Part shown: positions 2,626 to 46,806 of the stretch, one piece after another
How positions within the stretch are numbered: the first letter of the stretch is position 1
How the letters are laid out: every line of letters begins with the position of its first letter
NCBI RefSeq assembly: GCF_021028975.2
Contig: NC_059426.1
Location: forward strand, 146,258,001 to 146,322,000
From: Sphaerodactylus townsendi
Taxonomy: Eukaryota
DNA: 64,000 nt
Direction: 5' to 3'
The notes under the pieces: generated by a model
The model's input: only the letters and a program-made list of their open reading frames with translations
Told to the model about the DNA's origin: nothing
Databases searched by the model: none
Position numbers and translations under genes: made by a program

Positions 2626-3735
2626 AATCAAATTTATATACCGCCCCTCCCCCGAAGGGCTCTGGGCGGTAAACAACACAATCTAACAGCAATAACATTA
2701 AAATCCCAGTTAAAACAGCGAATTAAATAAATAAAGTTACAACGGCATCCAACAAAACTTCATAAAACATAATACACCCACCCTGGAAACAGACCCAAAA
2801 AGCTGAGGGCCCCATAAAATTAAGGGCCCAGAGCATAAAAAGGAGGGGAGGAGGGGGAGGGCGCACTTCAGCGGTCAGCCCCTCCAAACGCCCGGTGGAA
2901 CAATTCGGTCTTACAGGCCCTGCGGAACCCTCCAAGATCCCGCAGGGCCCGGATAGCTGGTGGTAAAGTGTTCCACCAGGCAGGGGCCAGGGCTGTAAAG
3001 GCCCTGGCCCGGGTAGAGGCCAACCGCATCATCGAGGGGCTAGGGACAACCAGCAAGTTGGCCTCTGCCGAACGCAGAGGCCGCAGAGGGACATATGGGG
3101 TAAGACGGTCCCGAAGGTACGAAGGTCCCAGACCGCGTAAGGCCTTAAAGGTGAGTACCCACACCTTATGAATGATTCGGAACTCAACCGGAAGCCAATG
3201 CAGGCGACGCAACACAGGTTGAATGTGTTCTCTAAAGGCACCACCTGTGAGCACACGCACCGCTGCATGTTGTACCAGTTTCAACTTCCGGATCAGACGT
3301 AAGGGAAGGCCCGCGTAGAGCGAGTTACAATAGTCTAACCTAGAGGTGACCGTTGCATGGATCACAGTGGCGAGGTCTGCCTGGGAGAGGAAGGGGGCCA
3401 ACCGCCGGGCCTGTCGAAGATGGAAAAACGCAACCCGGGTTATATGGGCCACCTGGGTCTCCATTGAAAGAGACGAATCCAGGTGGACCCCCCAGGCTGC
3501 GGACGGAGGAGGCTGGTGCCAATGTAGCCCCCTCCCACTCCGGCGGCTGGAAATCCCCCACCTCCCCCCGGCGGCCCAGCCAAAGGATCTCCGTCTTCGA
3601 TGGATTCAGTTTTAACCTGCTCTGTTGTAACCATCCAGCAACCGCCTCCAAACAATGCTGTAGAGCTGCAGGGGCAGCAACTGTCCCCCCCTCCATCAGC
3701 AGAATGAGCTGAGTGTCATCAGCATACTGGTGACA
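2577..3735 (-). mobile_element. 5'-truncated L2-clade LINE (RT C-terminus, 3' UTR and tail), relatively young
   Basis: Minus-strand QYADDTQL at ~3706-3729, LKLNPSKTEILW, and AFFHLRQARRLAPFL...TSRLDYCNSLYAGLP (ORF 2868-3464); one frameshift near 3490; many CpGs retained; (AAAT)n tail. Confidence 0.92.
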
Positions 3736-3956
3736 GATCAGCCCAAAGCTATGGGCCCTTTATGCCCTTTATGCCCTTTAAGATTAGTTTCCTATTGCTA
3801 TGTCATTTATTCACTTATTAGAGGACAAGTACATCCATGGCTTCTAGCTGTAGGGACTAAAGGGAACCTCCATTCTGAAAAAGGCAACATCAAGGGGGAG
3901 GTCCGGGCCACTATGCCCTGTTTTTTGGGCCTCCTAACTGGTTGGTCACTGTATGA

Positions 3957-13319: not shown

Positions 13320-14560
13320 TTTTGCAAGGTTTCCCCATGATATTCTTGCAAAAAAGCTAGTAAAATGTGGGCTAAACAGTGCTACTGTCAGTTGGATTTG
13401 TAATTGGTTGACTGACTGAACCCAAAGGGTGCTCAAAATGGCTTCCCTTTAACCTGGAGAGAAGTGACTAGTAGGGTGCCTCAGGGCTCTGTCCTGGTCC
13501 CAGTGCTATTCAATATTTTTATCAATGACTTGGATGATGGAATAGAGCCTGTGCTAATCAAATTTGCAGATGACACCAGTTAGGGGGGTGGGGTAGATAA
13601 TATCCCAGAGGGCAAGGTCAGAATTCAAAATGATATTGACAGATTAGAGAGCCGGGTCAAAAATAACAAAATGAATTCCAACAGGGAGAAATCTAAAGTA
13701 TTACACTTAGGTTGAAAAAATGAAATTTAAGACGGGTGATACTTGGCTTGACAACAGTACATGCGAAAGGGATCTGGGAGTCTTAATTGACCACAAGCGG
13801 AACATGAGTCAGCTGTGTGATCTTGCAACTAAGAAAGCCAATGTGATTTTGGGCTGCATTGATAGGAGTATAGTGTTCAGACCCAGCAAAGTAATAGTAT
13901 CACTCTATTCTGCATTGGTCAGACCTCACTTGGAATAGCGTGTCCATTTCAGGGTGCCACAGTTCAAGAAGGCTATTGACAAGCTAGAGCTGTGGTGGCG
14001 AACCGATGGCACTCCAGATGTTAATGGACTACAATTCCCATCAGCCCCGGCCAGCATGGCATACATGCTGTGGGGGCTGATGGGGAATTACTCCAGTCCA
14101 TTAACTTTATCTAGATACTCATCGGTTAACCTCCTACTGGCTGACAGCATAGTAAAAGGTCTGGAATCCATGCCCTGTGAGACAGACTTAGGGAGCGGAG
14201 TATGTTTAGTCTGGAGAAGAGAAGATTAAGTAGTGACATGATGTTTAAATATTTGAAGGGATATAATGTTGAAGAAGGAGCAAGCTTGTTTTCTAATACT
14301 CCAGAGATTAGGATAAGGAGCAATGGATTCAATGTACAGGAAAAGAGATTCCACCTAAACATTAGGAAGAACTTCCTAATGGTAAGGGTTGTTCGGCAGT
14401 GGAATACACTGCCTCAGAGGGTAAAAACCTTCTTTGGAGGTTTTAACATAGAGGCAAGAAGGCCATCTGTTGGGAGTGTTTTGATTGTGTGTTCCTGCTT
14501 GGCAGAGGGGTTGACTGGATGGTCCTTGTAGTCTCTTCCAATGCTATGATTCAATGAATT
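13320..14560 (+). mobile_element. 5'-truncated, degenerate CR1 LINE with a MITE fragment inserted at ~13990-14140
   Basis: [58 protein letters not shown] motifs; 3' end ctatgattc; multiple stops and frameshifts. Confidence 0.92.
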
Positions 14561-14827
14561 CCTGTGTAGTGCCATATTAGATTAGACAAATTGATTGACG
14601 AATGTAGAGCGATTGATGTTTATTACTATTATGGCTAGATGGTATCCCCGTGTTCAAGGGAAGTACATTTTGAGTGCTAGTTGCTGTGAGGGTACAACAA
14701 CAGAGACTTTTGCACCACTACCATGGGCTTTCTAGATCATTCATTTAGTCCATTTGGGAAACTGAATGCTGAACTTGATAGACCAGCAGGGCTCTTTTTT
14801 GTTCACGTATTCTTTGGGGCCACTAGT

Positions 14828-15309
14828 TGTTGGGGAATTGGTTCCCTATTTGGGTAATAAGCAGAGTGAGAGGAAAGACCAGGAGACTTTTGCTGTGATT
14901 ATAAAAAGAAACTTTACTTGACTAAATCAGGGTAGGGTATACATGGAATAAACATAACAAATCCTTACTATTCTAGTACAAACTTAGTTACAGAACTTAG
15001 GCACATGTGAGCCCACACGTGGCCTAGGCATTCCACCTCTTAAGGTGAATCCATCTTACAGGTAGCAAAGAAAAAGAACGTGTGAGTGTCTGTGAGTCTG
15101 TCTGTCTCTGTGTGTGTGAGACAAAGAAAACATAGTTAACTTTATAACCTCTGACCTACGTGCTCTGCCTCACATAAGCAATGTCGGATTAACTGCCCAA
15201 TGACTAATCAATGAATAGATAGCAAGACACTGACCTCACTAGCTAATTAACATGCACACAGTTAACCCCTTGTTGTCAGGATTGTGACAGACACTTGCAA
15301 ATCCTAACA
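14828..15309 (-). mobile_element. Solo LTR (482 bp, 5-bp TSD; Copia-like or other LTR class)
   Basis: TGTT...AACA termini; perfect TSD ctagt (14823-27/15310-14); minus-strand TATAAAA near 15140 and AGTAAA near 14915. Confidence 0.8.
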
Positions 15310-15925
15310 CTAGTACAGTCTGAGGAGCCAATATGGTGGAGCCTGCATAAATTAATGCTGGAATTTATAAGATGAAGCTTGAATGCATAACAGTGGTTCT
15401 TCTGCACAGCAGGTATGCTGCACAAAAACACATGAACAGGCCTGAAATTGGCAAGGAACAGCTATTGAGAACAATGTTGAAACTATACGTTACTAAGTAG
15501 TTTGATTAATACATGGTTATAATTTAACTAAATAATTATATAATTTTCAGCATCACAAAAATTATAACAAATAATCAAACAGTTTTAAAATCTCAGTTAC
15601 AAAACAGCATCCTTTGATACTAAATAAAATAGGTTTCAAGCAATCTCTTAATAGAAATGCAAAACCAAAACAAGTATTGTTATAAAACTGAACCGCTTGC
15701 AGCATGGGGGCACTGACCTTGTGGTTATCCAAGATCAGTTTGGTCCTAGACACAACAAAGTCAGGTTCAGTATAAGAACCTGAAGGGTATGGCATGTATT
15801 CAAATTAACCAAGTCTTAGTGAGTCATGCAGTCACCATGTTGTGGAAATCAAGGGAAACTAGGTCTAACTTGTGTGATGTAGGTAGCCAATGTAGCCCAC
15901 CAGCCATTTATGGCAGTCCCCCATG

Positions 15926-16148
15926 AAAGCCAGCCTAGTGTAGTAAGAATGGTAGATTATAAACTGGAGAACTAGGCTTGATTTCCCCTTCCTCCACATG
16001 AAGCCTGCAATGCGACCTTGGGCTATTCACAGTTCTCTTATAACTCTCTCAGTCCCATCTACCTCAGAAGATGCTTTTTATGGAGGGGTGGGGAAAGAGA
16101 ACGTATGCCACTTTGAGCTGTAAGGAGAGAGAAAGGGGGTATAAAAAC
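15926..16148 (+). mobile_element. tRNA-related squamate SINE
   Basis: agtgtagt..aaactggagaact..ttgatttcccc.tcctccacatgaagcc..gaccttggg core. Confidence 0.6.
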
Positions 16149-16759
16149 CAGCTCTGGGACTGCAGAACCAGGTGGTTGTCAAGCACAGTATTTTACCAGC
16201 ATGGCTAACATTTGGCTTGATTGTCCACAAGTTATATAGCTTAAATGAAAATAATCAAATGAGTAAGATGCCGGCTGTGGATGCATGGTGGAGTCATTTT
16301 TATTATCTAATACTTGATTCCGTACGTATGATATCAATCAAGAACCATCTATCCATCATGAGTATCATCCATCATACACATGGGGTTCCTTTCTCGGTTG
16401 GTTGATCTTTTGGAGATATCTGGACACCAAAGAAATGAACGCTAAGTTGAGTTACTTCTATCACAATCGAAAATATACAGCACCAAACATCAAATCATAA
16501 TGCAAAGGCATGCTGTCTGTGATGAATATATACTATTTTCTTTGGCTACAGGGAAGCAAGTGGCAAGTGACCATTGTTATATTAAACAAGCTGAGATATC
16601 TCCAGCATAAATAAACAACCAATTATAGGAATTGTCTGACAGGAAATCTGGCAACTTTATAACATACTTCCCAAATCCAGCTTTAATTATTTGGCAATCT
16701 CATCCTTTCTACACAGCCAGTCAGAGGTATCAAAAAGAAAATGAAGAATGTGAACCACA

Positions 16760-16855
16760 TGGGTGCTGTGTGGTTTCCGGGCTGTATGGCCGTGTTCTAG
16801 CAGCATTCTCTCCTGACGTTTCGCCTGCATCTGTGGCTGGCATCTTCAGAGGATC
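16760..16855 (-). mobile_element. Penelope-like element pseudo-LTR fragment
   Basis: Closely matches the 20911-21010 arm; contains hammerhead core; flanked by 13-bp duplication aatgtgaaccaca. Confidence 0.8.
16811..16853 (-). ncRNA. Minimal type I hammerhead ribozyme motif (PLE type)
   Basis: Minus strand UCCU-CUGAAGA-U-GCC..GGC-GAAA-CG-UC^AGGA: stem I UCCU/AGGA, conserved boxes, short palindromic helix III (ACGU), GUC cleavage triplet. Confidence 0.75.
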
Positions 16856-18728
16856 CTATAATTGGTTGTTTATTTATGCTGGAGATATCTCAGCTTGTTT
16901 AATATAACAATGGTCACTTGCCACTTGCTTCCCTGTAGCCAAAGAAAATGTGAACCACAGCTACTAAGGCTTTGAGTGTGTGAATTGGAGATATTTCTTT
17001 CTTTTTTTCTGTTTCTCTTATAATAACAGTACTGGGCATCCCTTGACAAAAATTATCAGTGCTCAGTTGAGAACAGAGACAAGGAAGCAATATTACTCAC
17101 CCATGCACTTAATTACCATAACCAGTGTTGATGATAGGCACTATCTGAGTTGGATGGCTTTTAGAAGGGATTAGGCAAATCAAAGGAAAATATTAACTCT
17201 TCGTTCATGAGTCCAGTGGTGGTATATCTCTGAATACCCAAGTGAAACTTATGTTTGGAAAGGGAACATGGTTTTCTGGTAGTGCCCATGCTCTGCAATG
17301 CAGAAGCTCCCTTATTCAATCTCCAGTTAGAGGATTCCACTTGGGAAATACCTTTTTTCTCCCTGAAACCTTGGAGTCAGAACAGAGAATGCTCAGTTAG
17401 GTATATAAATGGTCTGAATCACTCATTTGTGGAAATGGGAAGAAGATGGTTAATTCCTCTCTCCGCCCCCCACCCCACCCTGTGGCCCAGTTCAACAGAA
17501 TTGTATGAGAGGTTGTTCATCTTTCCTTAGATACAAGGACCTCCTGGAAAACAATGGCAAATCGTTTACTTATTCTACGCAGGGTATCGCATTCTAAACT
17601 GGTCAATCAGTTTTTATTCTTCCTTCATACACCTAGAAAATGTTAAATCAAAAGTGTTACTTCCAAATATCATTGAATGTCTTTGAGACCAGAAGTGAAG
17701 TACACAGATGTTTAAGTTCATTCATAGCCTAGATGACTTTCCTATATTGATTAAGCAGTACATTTCAAGCAGGTATATTATCTTAGGAAATAATCAGTAA
17801 ATTAACTGCAGGACATCAACCTTCTAGGAAGATTAATGATACATAATTTGCTTCTATGAAAGAAGCAAGCATCCAATAAATTAGAAAATGCACACTACAA
17901 TCAAGGCAAATTGTTAAATATCTCCACTACTCCCTTTATTGAGTGGTTGACAAATGGATTTTACATTCTTTCAGTCACATCAGAACTCTCTGTCACCCAC
18001 CCAACTACAAAACAGAAGTGAGCCACTTACCAATTGTGTATCCCCGAACAGAGTTACACCTTCCTAAGTTCATTGAAGTTAATGAGCTTAGGAATACTGT
18101 TAATGCATCATGCACATTCTATCCTCCCCTTATATCCATAGGAATTTGTATGGAGCTGTGTGTGTAGAAGAGACAGATAATTCAGTCTCTACATGTGAAC
18201 ATATACAAACATAAGAAACACATCTGGAGTCTGCCAGAATTCCATGTGCTTAACATCCTGAGACACATGCAAACGTATTACTTGATCTCTGTAATAATTA
18301 AAGACAGCTTGCTTGCAAGTGTGAATGAGCTACTGAAGATTTAATTCCACCAGCAGAAAACTTCAAGCCATCCTTATGGCCAAACTTGAGAACACACTGG
18401 GAGATCTACATTGAATCCCCTGCACAGTTTTGATCATCACACAATTATTAACCCTGGAATGGATAAACCAGAGAGGGGACCTGTCTTTTTCCTTCTGAGG
18501 ATAACAGCAGCCTTGGGAGGAAGAGTTTTTCTGATCAGCGAAACCATGGGACTTGAACTTTCTCCATCCCACCACCAAGACCTATTTCAAACTGAGGCCA
18601 TGGATGGCAGCTGCTGCATTTTCAAAACTGGAAAGAACTTGCTCTCATTTGCTAATATAACACTTTCCAGCAGCAACAGTTCACATATTTCATCTGAGAT
18701 CCAATAACCCAGACTAAAGAGCCATGGA

Positions 18729-18935
18729 AACTGTAATTAAAAGGCTCAAGTAATACATGATGTGACCGACCTTAGCCTGAGACCTTGTAGAGCAACTGAC
18801 TGATAGTGGCTTTACAAGGTCTCAGGCTAAGGTGTCACATCACTTATTACCTGAGCCTTTTAACTACAGTTAAAAAGTAGTAGACAATACAAGTCTTCAT
18901 GGACCAGTGGTCTGACTCAGTATAAAGCTGTTTCA
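18729..18935. repeat. Squam3-like SINE remnant with internal fold-back palindrome (18729-18871)
   Basis: ~68-bp inverted arms with 7-nt loop; downstream 'gtagacaatac..tggaccagtggtctgactcagtataa' resembles the SINE 3' part. Confidence 0.7.
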
Positions 18936-19186
18936 TGAGTCCAGGAGTATTCGATATATTATGCTTGGATCTGCTGCAGGATTTCTATGGATGGACAGGA
19001 TTTTGATCAGCAGAGCAGTTTCTTCCTTCTGCTTCAGAACAAAATGTCCCCCACTGAAATCCTTCTCTGGGGGAATCAGAGACCTCCCCCCGCCCCCCCA
19101 AAAAAGTATGAGGAAGAAGCTGGAACTATGCCCTGGGAAACAGGCATCAGCAAAAATAATACACACCATCTGCCAAAGGATCCAAG

Positions 19187-19379
19187 CAGAGGTGGGATCC
19201 AACCAGTTCTCACCACTTCTCTAGAAGTGGTTACTAATTTTTTCTGAGTGCCGAGAAGGGATTACCAAAGCAACCTCCCTGTCCAATAGGGACTGGAGGT
19301 GCGTGTGTGCAGCAGCGCCACTCTTTGAAACCCACCACCATCGGAATCTGTTATTAAATTTTGTTGGATCCCACCACTG
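19187..19379. mobile_element. hAT MITE (193 bp)
   Basis: TIR cagaggtgggatccaac/gttggatcccaccactg; 8-bp TSD gatccaag/aatccaag. Confidence 0.85.
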
Positions 19380-20960
19380 AATCCAAGCCATAGATAAATT
19401 AAAGTATTGTGTGTTGGTGTGAACCAGATATTAAAGTTTGAGCACACCAGATAAGATGCATCTTCCAAGAAAGAGCTTGAGGAAGGAGAGTCTGTGATTA
19501 ACTCCATGAAAAACAAAATCAACTACTGCCTATACAGAGACAATGAAAGCTAAAGAATTTCTGCATCTTCTAATCTTGGCAAATAATTAAGTCTCATAAT
19601 ATTGGTGCCAATATGATTAATGAAGAGGAAAAGACAATCTCTCTGGAACTGCTGTGCATTTCAAGACACAAGGGAACTTTAACCCTTTCAATCTAAAGAT
19701 GATTTATCTCATTTCAGTATTACAATAGCTCTCCTTTCTGCTGCTTAAAAATTGAATCTGGCCACTACTAATAATCTCCATTCTGCACCAGGGGCTCCAT
19801 CAGGGACATCCCAACTTTTGTTGTGGTTGTTGCCCTGAGAAAATGAAAATGTTCCTTCCCTTCTCTCTCTCCCCACCTCCAAGTCTGCATGCTGAGCAGT
19901 GTAGCAATTTTTCATTCAACAGTCACAAGTTGACTGGCATACTATTTTCATGCTGAAATTCCTGAAGTATCGTGCTCCACCATACTTAATTGGGGTTAAA
20001 TATTATCCCCAGATTCCTGGCTATTAGCACTATTATTTATTTATTTAAATTGAGATTTCTCACCCATTCTTTCCCAACCAAGTTGGGCTCATATGTTAGT
20101 TTCCTCATTTCACCTATACAACTAAAATGGAAGAAATGGATAGTGAGGGACAGTGAAGGAAGGAAAGAGAAGGAAGCTGTTCTCTTGCCACAACTGGGGC
20201 TGATACTTGGGTAGTGTAGTCAATGTACAAAATACAAAGTGCGGCCTTTAAAGCTGAACTGTTCCTGCTCTCTATTCTATATAGGGGCTTGAAGTGCTTC
20301 ACTCTTTTCATTCTTCCCATATTTAGATTCATACTATCAGGGAAGAAGCAAGTCTAGTGTCATTGGGTGGAATAGACTGTGTTAGTACAACCCTGAGGGT
20401 TCCCGATAATAACTGCGTCTCTCAAGTAAGATATATTAGGCAAAAATTGTTCTTTAAATCCTGGGACTAATGTGCCATAATCATTCAGTCCCATTTTACT
20501 TTCCTCTGCCTATTAAATTTTGAGATAAGAAAATTAAAAATTGCCTGGGTGGATCAGACCAGGAATCCTATTGCAATGTACTATCATTACCAGCAGTCAT
20601 TCATCTACTACTGAAAGCTTTCAGTTAGAGTTCCTTGAGGTAAACTCTCTCTAATCATGGAGTCTCCATTTGGCTTCTTGTAACAAATATAGGCCCTTTA
20701 TGCACAAATCCTGAAAATGTTTTTTTAAAATTTTCAGCCCCCCCCTTTACCACAATGCATGTCCACACTCACCCCCTCAAAATGATTCCTAGCCTCCATT
20801 TTGTTATTTTTTTCCCTTTTTTTGAGTTCATTAACAAATTGATGTTTTTGTGCTTCACAAATCCAGTGCGTAAGAAGGAAAACACAGGAAGGAATGACAT
20901 TCTTTTTGGGGGGTGTTGTGGGGTTTCCGAGCGGTATGGCCATGTTTCAGTAGCATTTTC

Positions 20961-21381: not shown

Positions 21382-21424
21382 TCATCTGAAGATGCCAGCC
21401 ACCAATGCAGATGAAACATCCGGA
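21382..21424 (+). ncRNA. Degenerate hammerhead motif, copy 3
   Basis: CTGAAGA and GAAA boxes kept; stems I-III mutated (tcat..gaaacatccgga). Confidence 0.45.
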
Positions 21425-45042: not shown

Positions 45043-45581
45043 CTATAGTAGATGCATGGAGTAATCACGTTATTTCCTGCAGCTTTTCTCTAATGTTTGT
45101 CTGAGTGTTTCTGCTTTCATGCAGCTCCTCGTGTCATTTTTGAACCCTAACTCTCTGGTCAGTCAGGCTGTACCACTGCCTTTCCAATGGCTGTCATCAG
45201 ACTTGAAGACTGACTCTCAAGGGGCATACAAATCAGTGGCATGTCCAGACTTGACACATGATACTTCCTCCAGTAGGCTCAAGACTCCAGTCAACTCCTA
45301 TGGGGTTTAAAAAAATCAGCCCAAGTGTCTGTTAGCATTTTAGTGCCCATAAATATGAGCATCACAGACATATAAAATGAATAAGAAAAAAGGGGGTTTT
45401 TTTGTTCAGAAGCTTTTGCCTGTATATAAGGAATGCCTTCCTTAAATAAATAATAATGCGCTTTCAGCACTCTGCCAAGCTTGCAGTAGCTTTAGCAGCT
45501 AAAGGGGAGATTTTTTTTCAGGATGTGAAGTAAGAGGGATACAAAAAATGGGAGGTAAGAGGGATACCAAAAAAAACAAAC

Positions 45582-46806
45582 AGTTTTTTTGACAAAGCTC
45601 CTCACCAGAGACTACTGAGAAAATTCAACAATCAAGGAATAAAAGGTGAAGTCCTCCTATGGATTAAAAACTGGTTGAGAAGCAGGAAGCAAAGGGTGGG
45701 TGTAAATGGGAAGTTCTCACAATGGAGAGATGTAGAGAGAGGTGTCCCCCAAGGATCCGTTTGGGGACTAGTGCTCTTGAATCTATTCATAAATGACCTG
45801 GAAGTAGGGGTGGATAGCGTGGTGGCCAAGTTTGCGGATGATACCAAATTATGTATTGCGGACCTTGATAAATTAGGTGAGTTGGCTAAGAAATGGCAAA
45901 TGCAGTTCAATGTAGCAAAATGCAAAGTGATGCATATAGGGGCAAAAAATCCAAACTTCACATACACACTACAGGAGTCAGTGCTATTGTAACCCCTGTG
46001 TCAGAATGGGATGACCCAGAAAGGGTGGAGTCTGAAATGATGTAGAATGCTGCAGAACTCATGAGGTTGGAGGAAGCGAGACTACCAGGCTGGGACCTTG
46101 ATTGATTTTATTAAGCCCTTAACACCTTGTTTAAGGTAACTGCAATGTTGTGGGGAACTAGTGGGAAGGGAGTTTATTTTTTTGCTATATTGTAAATGTT
46201 AGAATTTATTGTTTCAGGGTTTTTGTGTATGTAAATGGTGAGAGTTTTCTGGGAACCTTCATCATCTTGAAGCCCATTCACCAAGCCTCAGAAGTCTTCA
46301 AAACCAACCACCAGCAAAGAAGAATTGGACTTGGCAATATCAGTAGACTGTAAATAAGGACTTGAAAATGCAAACTTAACAGGACTGCAAAGTGTAAATG
46401 TTAAATGTTTTAAAAGTGTTATTTGTTAAGTAAAGTAAACTGTTTTGTTTAAATTTGGTTCTTTGCAACTCCTTCCAAGTACTGCCCCACAGAACCCACA
46501 AGCTGAGGTTACACTATCAGTCACAGATCAGGAAAGGGATCTGGGTGTCTTAGTTGATTGTTCGATGGGAATGTCGACTCAATGCATGGCAGCTGTGAAA
46601 AAGGCAAACTCTATCCTGGGGATAATTAGGAAAGGAGTTGATAATAAAACTGCAAAGATTGTCATGCCCTTATAGAAAGCAGTGGTGCGACCGCACTTGG
46701 AGTACTGGGTTCAGTTCTGGTCGCCACATCCCAAAAAGGATATCGAAGAGATAGAAAAAGTGCAGAGAAGGGCAATGAGGATGATTGAGGGACTGGAGCA
46801 CCTTCT
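45582..46806 (+). mobile_element. CR1 LINE RT fragment split by a solo LTR
   Basis: GVPQGSV.GLVLLNLFINDLE, KFADDTKL, KWQMQFNVAKCKVMHIG | ERDLGVLVD, VRPHLEY.VQFWSPH. Confidence 0.92.
45988..46513 (+). mobile_element. Solo LTR (526 bp, 4-bp TSD; Gypsy- or ERV1-type) nested in CR1
   Basis: TGTAACC...GGTTACA termini; TSD ctat/ctat; CR1 reading frame resumes after it (ESVL|SVTDQERDLG); strand tentative (AGTAAA near the right end). Confidence 0.9.

Follow-up and report, generated by a model that had tools for sequence, protein, structure and literature searches.

An inverted copy of flanking DNA inside a tail-less Penelope insertion: a rare, probable repair scar in a family of one-tailed head-to-head copies

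Introduction

How does a perfect inverted copy of flanking DNA come to lie inside a retroelement insertion, between the element and its target-site duplication (TSD)? The question is raised by a locus in the window (the whole stretch of DNA analysed, 64,000 nucleotides), where a sequence-only reading had described a hammerhead-bearing Penelope fragment fused to a reverse complement of its own flank. The locus is probably a single 200-bp insertion, in which a tail-less stub of a Poseidon-type Penelope element is followed by an inverted 96-nt copy of the flank, likely produced when the cDNA end folded back onto the resected flank strand during repair. Direct observation covers the 200-bp net gain, the TSD, what the stub is and the fact that the patch was derived locally. 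The insertion is real, and the scar that it left is of a rare type of repair known from other retrotransposons.

Anatomy of the insertion

The two inverted arms (16535-16630 and 16854-16949) are 96 nt each, 100% complementary and 223 nt apart, and are not extendable on either side; the second-longest inverted pair in the region 14000-20000 measured 38 nt with 89% identity. The first arm (plus strand) is pre-existing flank and the template of the patch; the empty-site contig of organism B, described below, contains it a single time and with no listed difference. The 116 nt of skipped flank between the template and the target site (16631-16746, plus strand) are also in that contig. The left copy of the 13-bp TSD (16747-16759, plus strand) follows, and its 3' end is the putative primer of the cDNA. 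The right copy (16947-16959, plus strand) is an exact direct repeat of the left.

Between the two TSD copies lies first the element piece (16760-16855, minus strand), a tail-less arm running from a GATC boundary to position +84 of the element ORF and coding for the first 28 residues of the element protein. This piece showed 0 differences over 95 positions from the modal letters of 73 unselected copies of the family. It is followed by the inverted copy of 16535-16630 (16854-16949, plus strand), which is absent from the empty site and, by the partner-arm rule set out below, stands in the usual place of a tailed partner arm. Sequence comparison showed that the cDNA end and the flank template overlap by 2 nt, TC (16854-16855, plus strand), and that the first three letters of the right TSD copy, AAT, overlap the end of the inverted copy (16947-16949). 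The patch starts exactly at the 5' boundary of the family and ends exactly at the TSD; the locally templated segment lies inside the TSD at the 5' end of the element. The arms, their spacing, the direct repeats and both overlaps all stand as first described. At 16734-16742, 4 nt before the TSD, a stretch of 9 nt also matches the patch end; this alternative annealing site is not preferred, as its use needs a further 7-nt deletion.

Evidence that the insertion is real, and its age

Four runs were compared, at the level of contigs. In the related organism B (run X4), one contig of 2,994 nt runs from 16028 to 16746 and then from 16947 to 17500 with zero letters between, which is the empty site. 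As this contig joins 16746 directly to 16947, the empty site contains a single TSD copy, and the insertion added 200 bp net. The pre-insertion sequence with a single TSD copy, which had been anticipated from the window sequence, was thus seen in a second organism. Organism A was sampled a second time in run X3, which differs from the window at 16231 and 16440. One of its contigs covers 16830-16949, including the element-to-patch junction, with 0 mismatches, and the patch-to-TSD junction was also present in this run. No empty allele was found in the contigs of the two organism A samples, which cannot prove absence. In organism C, a contig ends at 16630 with 28 unplaced letters.

A fold-back chimera of the library or of the assembly has to be weighed here, as the evidence comes from contigs rather than long reads and the junction contigs carry 25-30 letters on the short side, less than the 31-letter bridging rule. 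It is countered by the empty site in organism B and by the second individual of organism A, whose contigs contain both the element-to-patch and the patch-to-TSD junctions. In run X1, moreover, the depth of the arm contig was 178, about twice that of the flanks (89-103), and the contigs broke at 16564, 16601 and 16920, where a true two-copy repeat predicts. A chimera is regarded as very improbable.

The perfect identity of the arms had been taken to imply a very recent event, which was not upheld. Over 1,267 aligned flank bases, organisms A and B show 16 differences (1.3%), and the probability of 96 identical bases is 0.30 even for an insertion as old as the split between the two. The identity therefore dates little, and the insertion has two carriers. 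The focal insertion is either younger than the A/B split or was polymorphic before it.

The element, its 5' boundary and its hammerhead motif

A pattern search of the 1.81-Gb genome that contains the window found 7,854 exact copies of a 47-nt core of the element. The 84 coding bases of the stub are identical to the start of the 819-aa reverse transcriptase ORF of a full-ORF copy, L281 (Pfam RVT_1, E=1.1e-12). The C-terminal region of this ORF resembles GIY-YIG, with an atlas feature score of 0.95 and with GIY-YIG as the top three clusters, in which the Pfam family is present on 20-31% of members; the motif GVY...VYIG is visible in the ORF. The GIY-YIG domain of L281 was not detected by Pfam, PHROGs or PDB sequence searches. 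The stub itself is non-coding debris. The copies showed the pLTR layout of such elements, in which 5'-truncated copies are inverted and a tail of 30-40 bp is optional, with two end classes at about 95-100 and 128-131, and an inverted self-copy accompanied 59 of the 73 unselected copies. From these features the family would be an EN+ Penelope-like element of the Penelope/Poseidon type, the name Poseidon being set by the match in layout to PAc.

PAc, the Poseidon element of Anolis carolinensis (PMC11167929), is similar in having its ORF start at hammerhead stem II, a cut triplet placed 26 nt behind the ATG, a pair of 3' ends separated by about 34 nt and an ORF of ~820 aa with reverse transcriptase and C-terminal GIY-YIG. 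The available portion of that text differs from the present analysis in discussing neither head-to-head pairing nor flank patches. One start in PAc was placed 111-118 nt into the ORF, with the tail lying between two starts (PMC11167929). Position +84 may be the second start site; this is our own reading from the genome copies and not from the PAc paper.

The native four bases before GATC were missing in 46 of the 73 unselected copies, a count made with a copy pattern that requires GATC and leaves shorter copies uncounted. Among 133 partner arms, which had not been selected in this way, only 5 extended beyond GATC by at least 5 native bases. Copies that keep native sequence have a TATA-like box 29-36 nt upstream of GATC, and L281 begins at the same boundary. 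Because of these last three findings, GATC is read as likely lying at or near the 5' end of the element RNA, and the stub as a likely run-off product rather than an early stop caused by the ribozyme. A stop just past the ribozyme, previously interpreted as an event of this locus, is therefore better described as a family-wide boundary. A 3' splice site (CAG/ATCC) was weighed as an alternative origin of the boundary and not preferred; no recurrent upstream exon was apparent among 30 copies viewed.

The boxes of a hammerhead core were found by motif match at 16811-16853 on the minus strand. They form a minimal type I motif, with stem I TCCT/AGGA, CTGAAGA, GAAA and a GTC triplet but without helix III, and the end of the triplet lies 26 nt beyond the ATG codon, a spacing shared with PAc (PMC11167929). 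The core boxes, stems I and II, the missing helix III, a palindromic junction and an extra base before G10.1 all agree with the published description of such motifs (PMC4209133). The isolated motif folded no better than shuffled sequences (z -0.32). The Rfam search returned nothing at gathering score in the window, and no hammerhead family near the locus even at E<=10. A single minimal hammerhead motif did not cleave (PMC4209133), and the PAc motif requires protein (PMC11167929). By analogy with these, the lone motif at this locus is probably inactive on its own, so that of the minus-strand ribozyme first proposed the core motif stands and the activity is doubtful. A second, more diverged match to the hammerhead core, with 2 mismatches in 19, lies at 21386-21404 (plus strand).

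Flank patches and fillers across the family

In total, 239 distinct loci were surveyed: 73 unselected, 165 picked for non-native GATC junctions, and the focal locus. A TSD of at least 8 bases was found in 114 of these, and the other 125 were left out of the patch count; the sample is enriched for GATC junctions. TSD lengths peaked at 12-14 bp (75/114), and a target-primed Penelope insertion with a 13-bp TSD, as originally proposed for the focal locus, agrees with this family mode. Patches of at least 20 nt copied from within 1 kb of flank were present at 2 of the 113 other TSD-resolved loci (95% range 0.2-6.2%). Locally templated segments do occur at other Penelope insertions, and they are rare among the TSD-resolved loci of this sample.

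The first of the two loci, L150, carries a 24-nt patch of inverted downstream flank inside its TSD, with the same anatomy and on the same side as the focal locus, and 0 of 40 swapped flanks matched it as well. The second, L039, carries a direct 34-nt patch, which was likewise not matched by any of 40 swapped flanks. The 96-nt patch of the focal locus is the longest unambiguous patch in the survey. When the TSD filter was omitted, inverted near-junction hits were seen at 6 of the 238 other loci, compared with 4 of 238 in a far-upstream control. The closeness of these two counts is due to older repeats. Three of the six hits lay outside the TSD and two represented one duplicated event. L108, L117 and L208 were rejected as flank copies because they lie outside the TSD, and the 303-nt filler at L094 was not accepted as a clear flank copy, being a dispersed repeat with several local copies and an ambiguous source.

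That the focal structure arose in two events, with a solo stub inserted first and an adjoining inverted copy added later by a replication template switch, is considered improbable. Solo tail-less stubs are common (37 loci in this class, including the focal locus), and inverted local duplications arise without transposons. Against such a history, the patch fits exactly between the 5' boundary of the element and an intact TSD, the patches of L150 and L039 occupy the same kind of junction, and no intermediate allele was present among the four runs.

Short iterated local fillers were found at L002, L131 and L186, and iterated fillers made up of the TSD and nearby bases were present in several solo copies. 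Iterated local fillers are a signature of theta-type end joining, which those at the three loci resemble. At these loci and at L047, the short fillers consisted of recurring pieces of the TSD, of nearby flank in inverted orientation and of the element start. Fillers of 120-250 nt inside the TSDs of L088, L172, L045 and L003 had no source in the 3-kb locus and may come from distant DNA or RNA. At L206 and L106, fillers of 10-12 nt between the arms were telomere-like (GGTTAG or AACCCT units).

The one-tail rule of head-to-head copies

Both ends could be classed in 139 head-to-head pairs. One arm was tailed and the other tail-less in 133 of them, while 2 had two tails and 4 had none; in 28 further pairs, one end fitted neither class. 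The TSD-resolved pairs followed the one-tail rule by 77 to 0, with 2 unclassed. For 30 loci picked for a tail, some of which overlap the earlier loci, the partners were tail-less in 18, tailed in 0, other in 5 and none in 7. A tail at one end only has already been described for head-to-head Penelope copies, and the layout was attributed either to endonuclease resolution or to self-priming with an antisense template (PMC8557442, PMC3846280). The formation of the tandem and inverted structures was called undefined (PMC8557442). The present data differ in that no counts are given in the portions of those two texts available, and in that the focal locus has flank DNA instead of a partner arm.

Nesting of the arms was used to examine self-fold-back. 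The fold-back of a tailed cDNA would nest the tail-less arm inside the tailed one. Of 73 pairs with a tail-less arm beginning at GATC, 36 were non-nested, their tailed arm being without positions 1-9; these 36 include 13 of the 27 young pairs, and the reverse case was seen in 15 of 60. The frequency of non-nested arms argues against simple self-fold-back, although later deletion at the centre of the palindrome could produce the same pattern. The nesting test replaced an early argument that a tailed inverted arm excludes fold-back of the element's own cDNA, which was rejected because the arm labels are symmetric. Variants common to both arms numbered 45, versus 226 in one arm only. The shared variants fit a common template, but also fold-back or conversion.

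These patterns might indicate that, in head-to-head insertions, both cut target ends are primed on element RNA, one at each internal start site, a proposal to which we give an even chance. Both cDNAs would run toward the 5' end of the RNA, and host end joining would fuse their 3' ends. Such dual priming would explain the one-tail rule (133 versus 6), the non-nested arms, the shared variants and the flank patches between arms. If it is true, the focal locus would be a case in which the second priming failed and the gap was bridged with flank DNA. No published proposal of paired start-site use or dual priming, or of germline flank patches in Penelope, was found in the largely open-access literature covered. 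The near-strict pairing of tailed and tail-less arms yields a prediction that is directly testable in the existing PAc in vitro system.

Some copies had unusual surroundings. An inverted duplication, each arm measuring about 2.4 kb, is centred on the tail/tail head-to-head copy at L074 (G000:C1:116023671-116028788); a run-through fold-back, a later rearrangement or an assembly error could account for it. The junction filler of L074 recurs in a second copy, L075, at a distance of 28 kb. A 16-nt G-rich unit forms long arrays, reaching 10 kb, that abut or cut into element copies at L005, L050 and L075 (G000:C1:116044509-116054544), and the same array is found near L003; these are possibly an assembly artefact or a product of iterative synthesis. 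L119 and L120 (G000:C1, about 11.00-11.02 Mb) lie 13 kb apart on opposite strands; their upstream sequences agree at 96% over at least 1.5 kb, and the tailed arm is only about 20 nt long.

A proposed mechanism for the focal insertion

In the proposed sequence of events, the element protein would cut both strands of the target with a 13-nt stagger, and the plus-strand end at 16759 would prime reverse transcription at the internal start (+84), with run-off at GATC. The other DNA end would be left without its usual tailed cDNA. Resection of 5' ends over at least 212 nt would expose the plus strand, on which the cDNA end could pair at 16629-16630 (TC) and copy 96 nt. The new end would then pair through AAT with the overhang of the other end and be sealed. 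The polymerase may be host polymerase theta or the reverse transcriptase of the element. The microhomologies of 2-3 nt are no more than expected by chance, and cannot fix the order of events or the priming end. Fold-back onto the flank followed by microhomology joining, as put forward by the sequence-only reading, remains the best mechanism, although its overlaps are at chance level and its stop is not special.

The patch might instead have been primed from the other DNA end, with a minus-strand overhang ending in ATT invading the left flank or the sister chromatid, copying 96 nt and joining the cDNA through the 2-nt overlap. That end is the one normally extended in this family, the overlap there is the longer (3 nt), the orientation of the L039 patch fits priming across ends, and PAc extends both strands in vitro (PMC11167929). 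In that case, however, the template would have to come from the minus strand of the left fragment. As 5' resection removes this strand, invasion of a duplex on 3-nt homology would be needed. Priming from this end is judged unlikely, and fold-back of the cDNA end is preferred.

Comparable outcomes have been reported for other retrotransposons. In R2/PRINT, before the 5' junction is made, the 3' end of the cDNA primes synthesis on the cDNA itself or, in fewer cases, on rDNA close by (PMC11371274). The mechanism proposed here is alike in that a cDNA 3' end primes extra local synthesis. It differs in setting: that work concerned engineered R2 in human cells at rDNA, whereas the focal locus arose naturally in the germline, from a Penelope insertion whose 13-bp TSD is intact. 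For L1, fold-back duplications of 52-220 bp were found in 0.3% of insertions (PMC10191854), and resection with self-annealing on 2-bp homology has been modelled (10.1101/2024.12.14.628481). The duplications of these L1 studies share with the focal locus a short inverted flank copy, rarity, 2-bp homology and retention of the TSD. They are somatic and are found upstream of the target or at the reciprocal end; the template of the focal, germline insertion lies instead on the primer side, separated from the TSD by 116 nt. The locus offers a clean natural example of snap-back repair in Penelope, complete with an empty site. It extends the outcome seen in R2 and L1 to this class, and it implies that double-strand ends are resected while Penelope inserts. 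Of greater value than the locus itself is the family survey, with its one-tail rule and the test suggested by it.

Hairpin and surroundings

As RNA, the focal hairpin was computed at about -225 kcal/mol. The 96-bp perfect hairpin with a 223-nt loop is exactly as it had been described, but is not unusual. Among the 133 one-tailed head-to-head copies, 93 had arms of at least 75 nt, and 100 had less than 10 nt between the arms, so that tighter hairpins are the norm of the family. As most copies also have an inverted self-copy, the focal hairpin is unremarkable in this genome. No host exon was recognised: 29 long and 101 shorter ORFs yielded only two reverse transcriptase fragments, both elsewhere in the window, and one sub-threshold hit. 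No sign of a function emerged, and the product at the focal locus is most likely a neutral scar. The reverse transcriptase ORF fragments, at 45534-45989 (plus strand) and 3343-3759 (minus strand), belong to other retroelements (Pfam RVT_1). A near-perfect palindrome of 143 nt at 18729-18871, with arms of 38 nt and 29 nt and a 7-nt loop, is probably a small inverted-repeat element.
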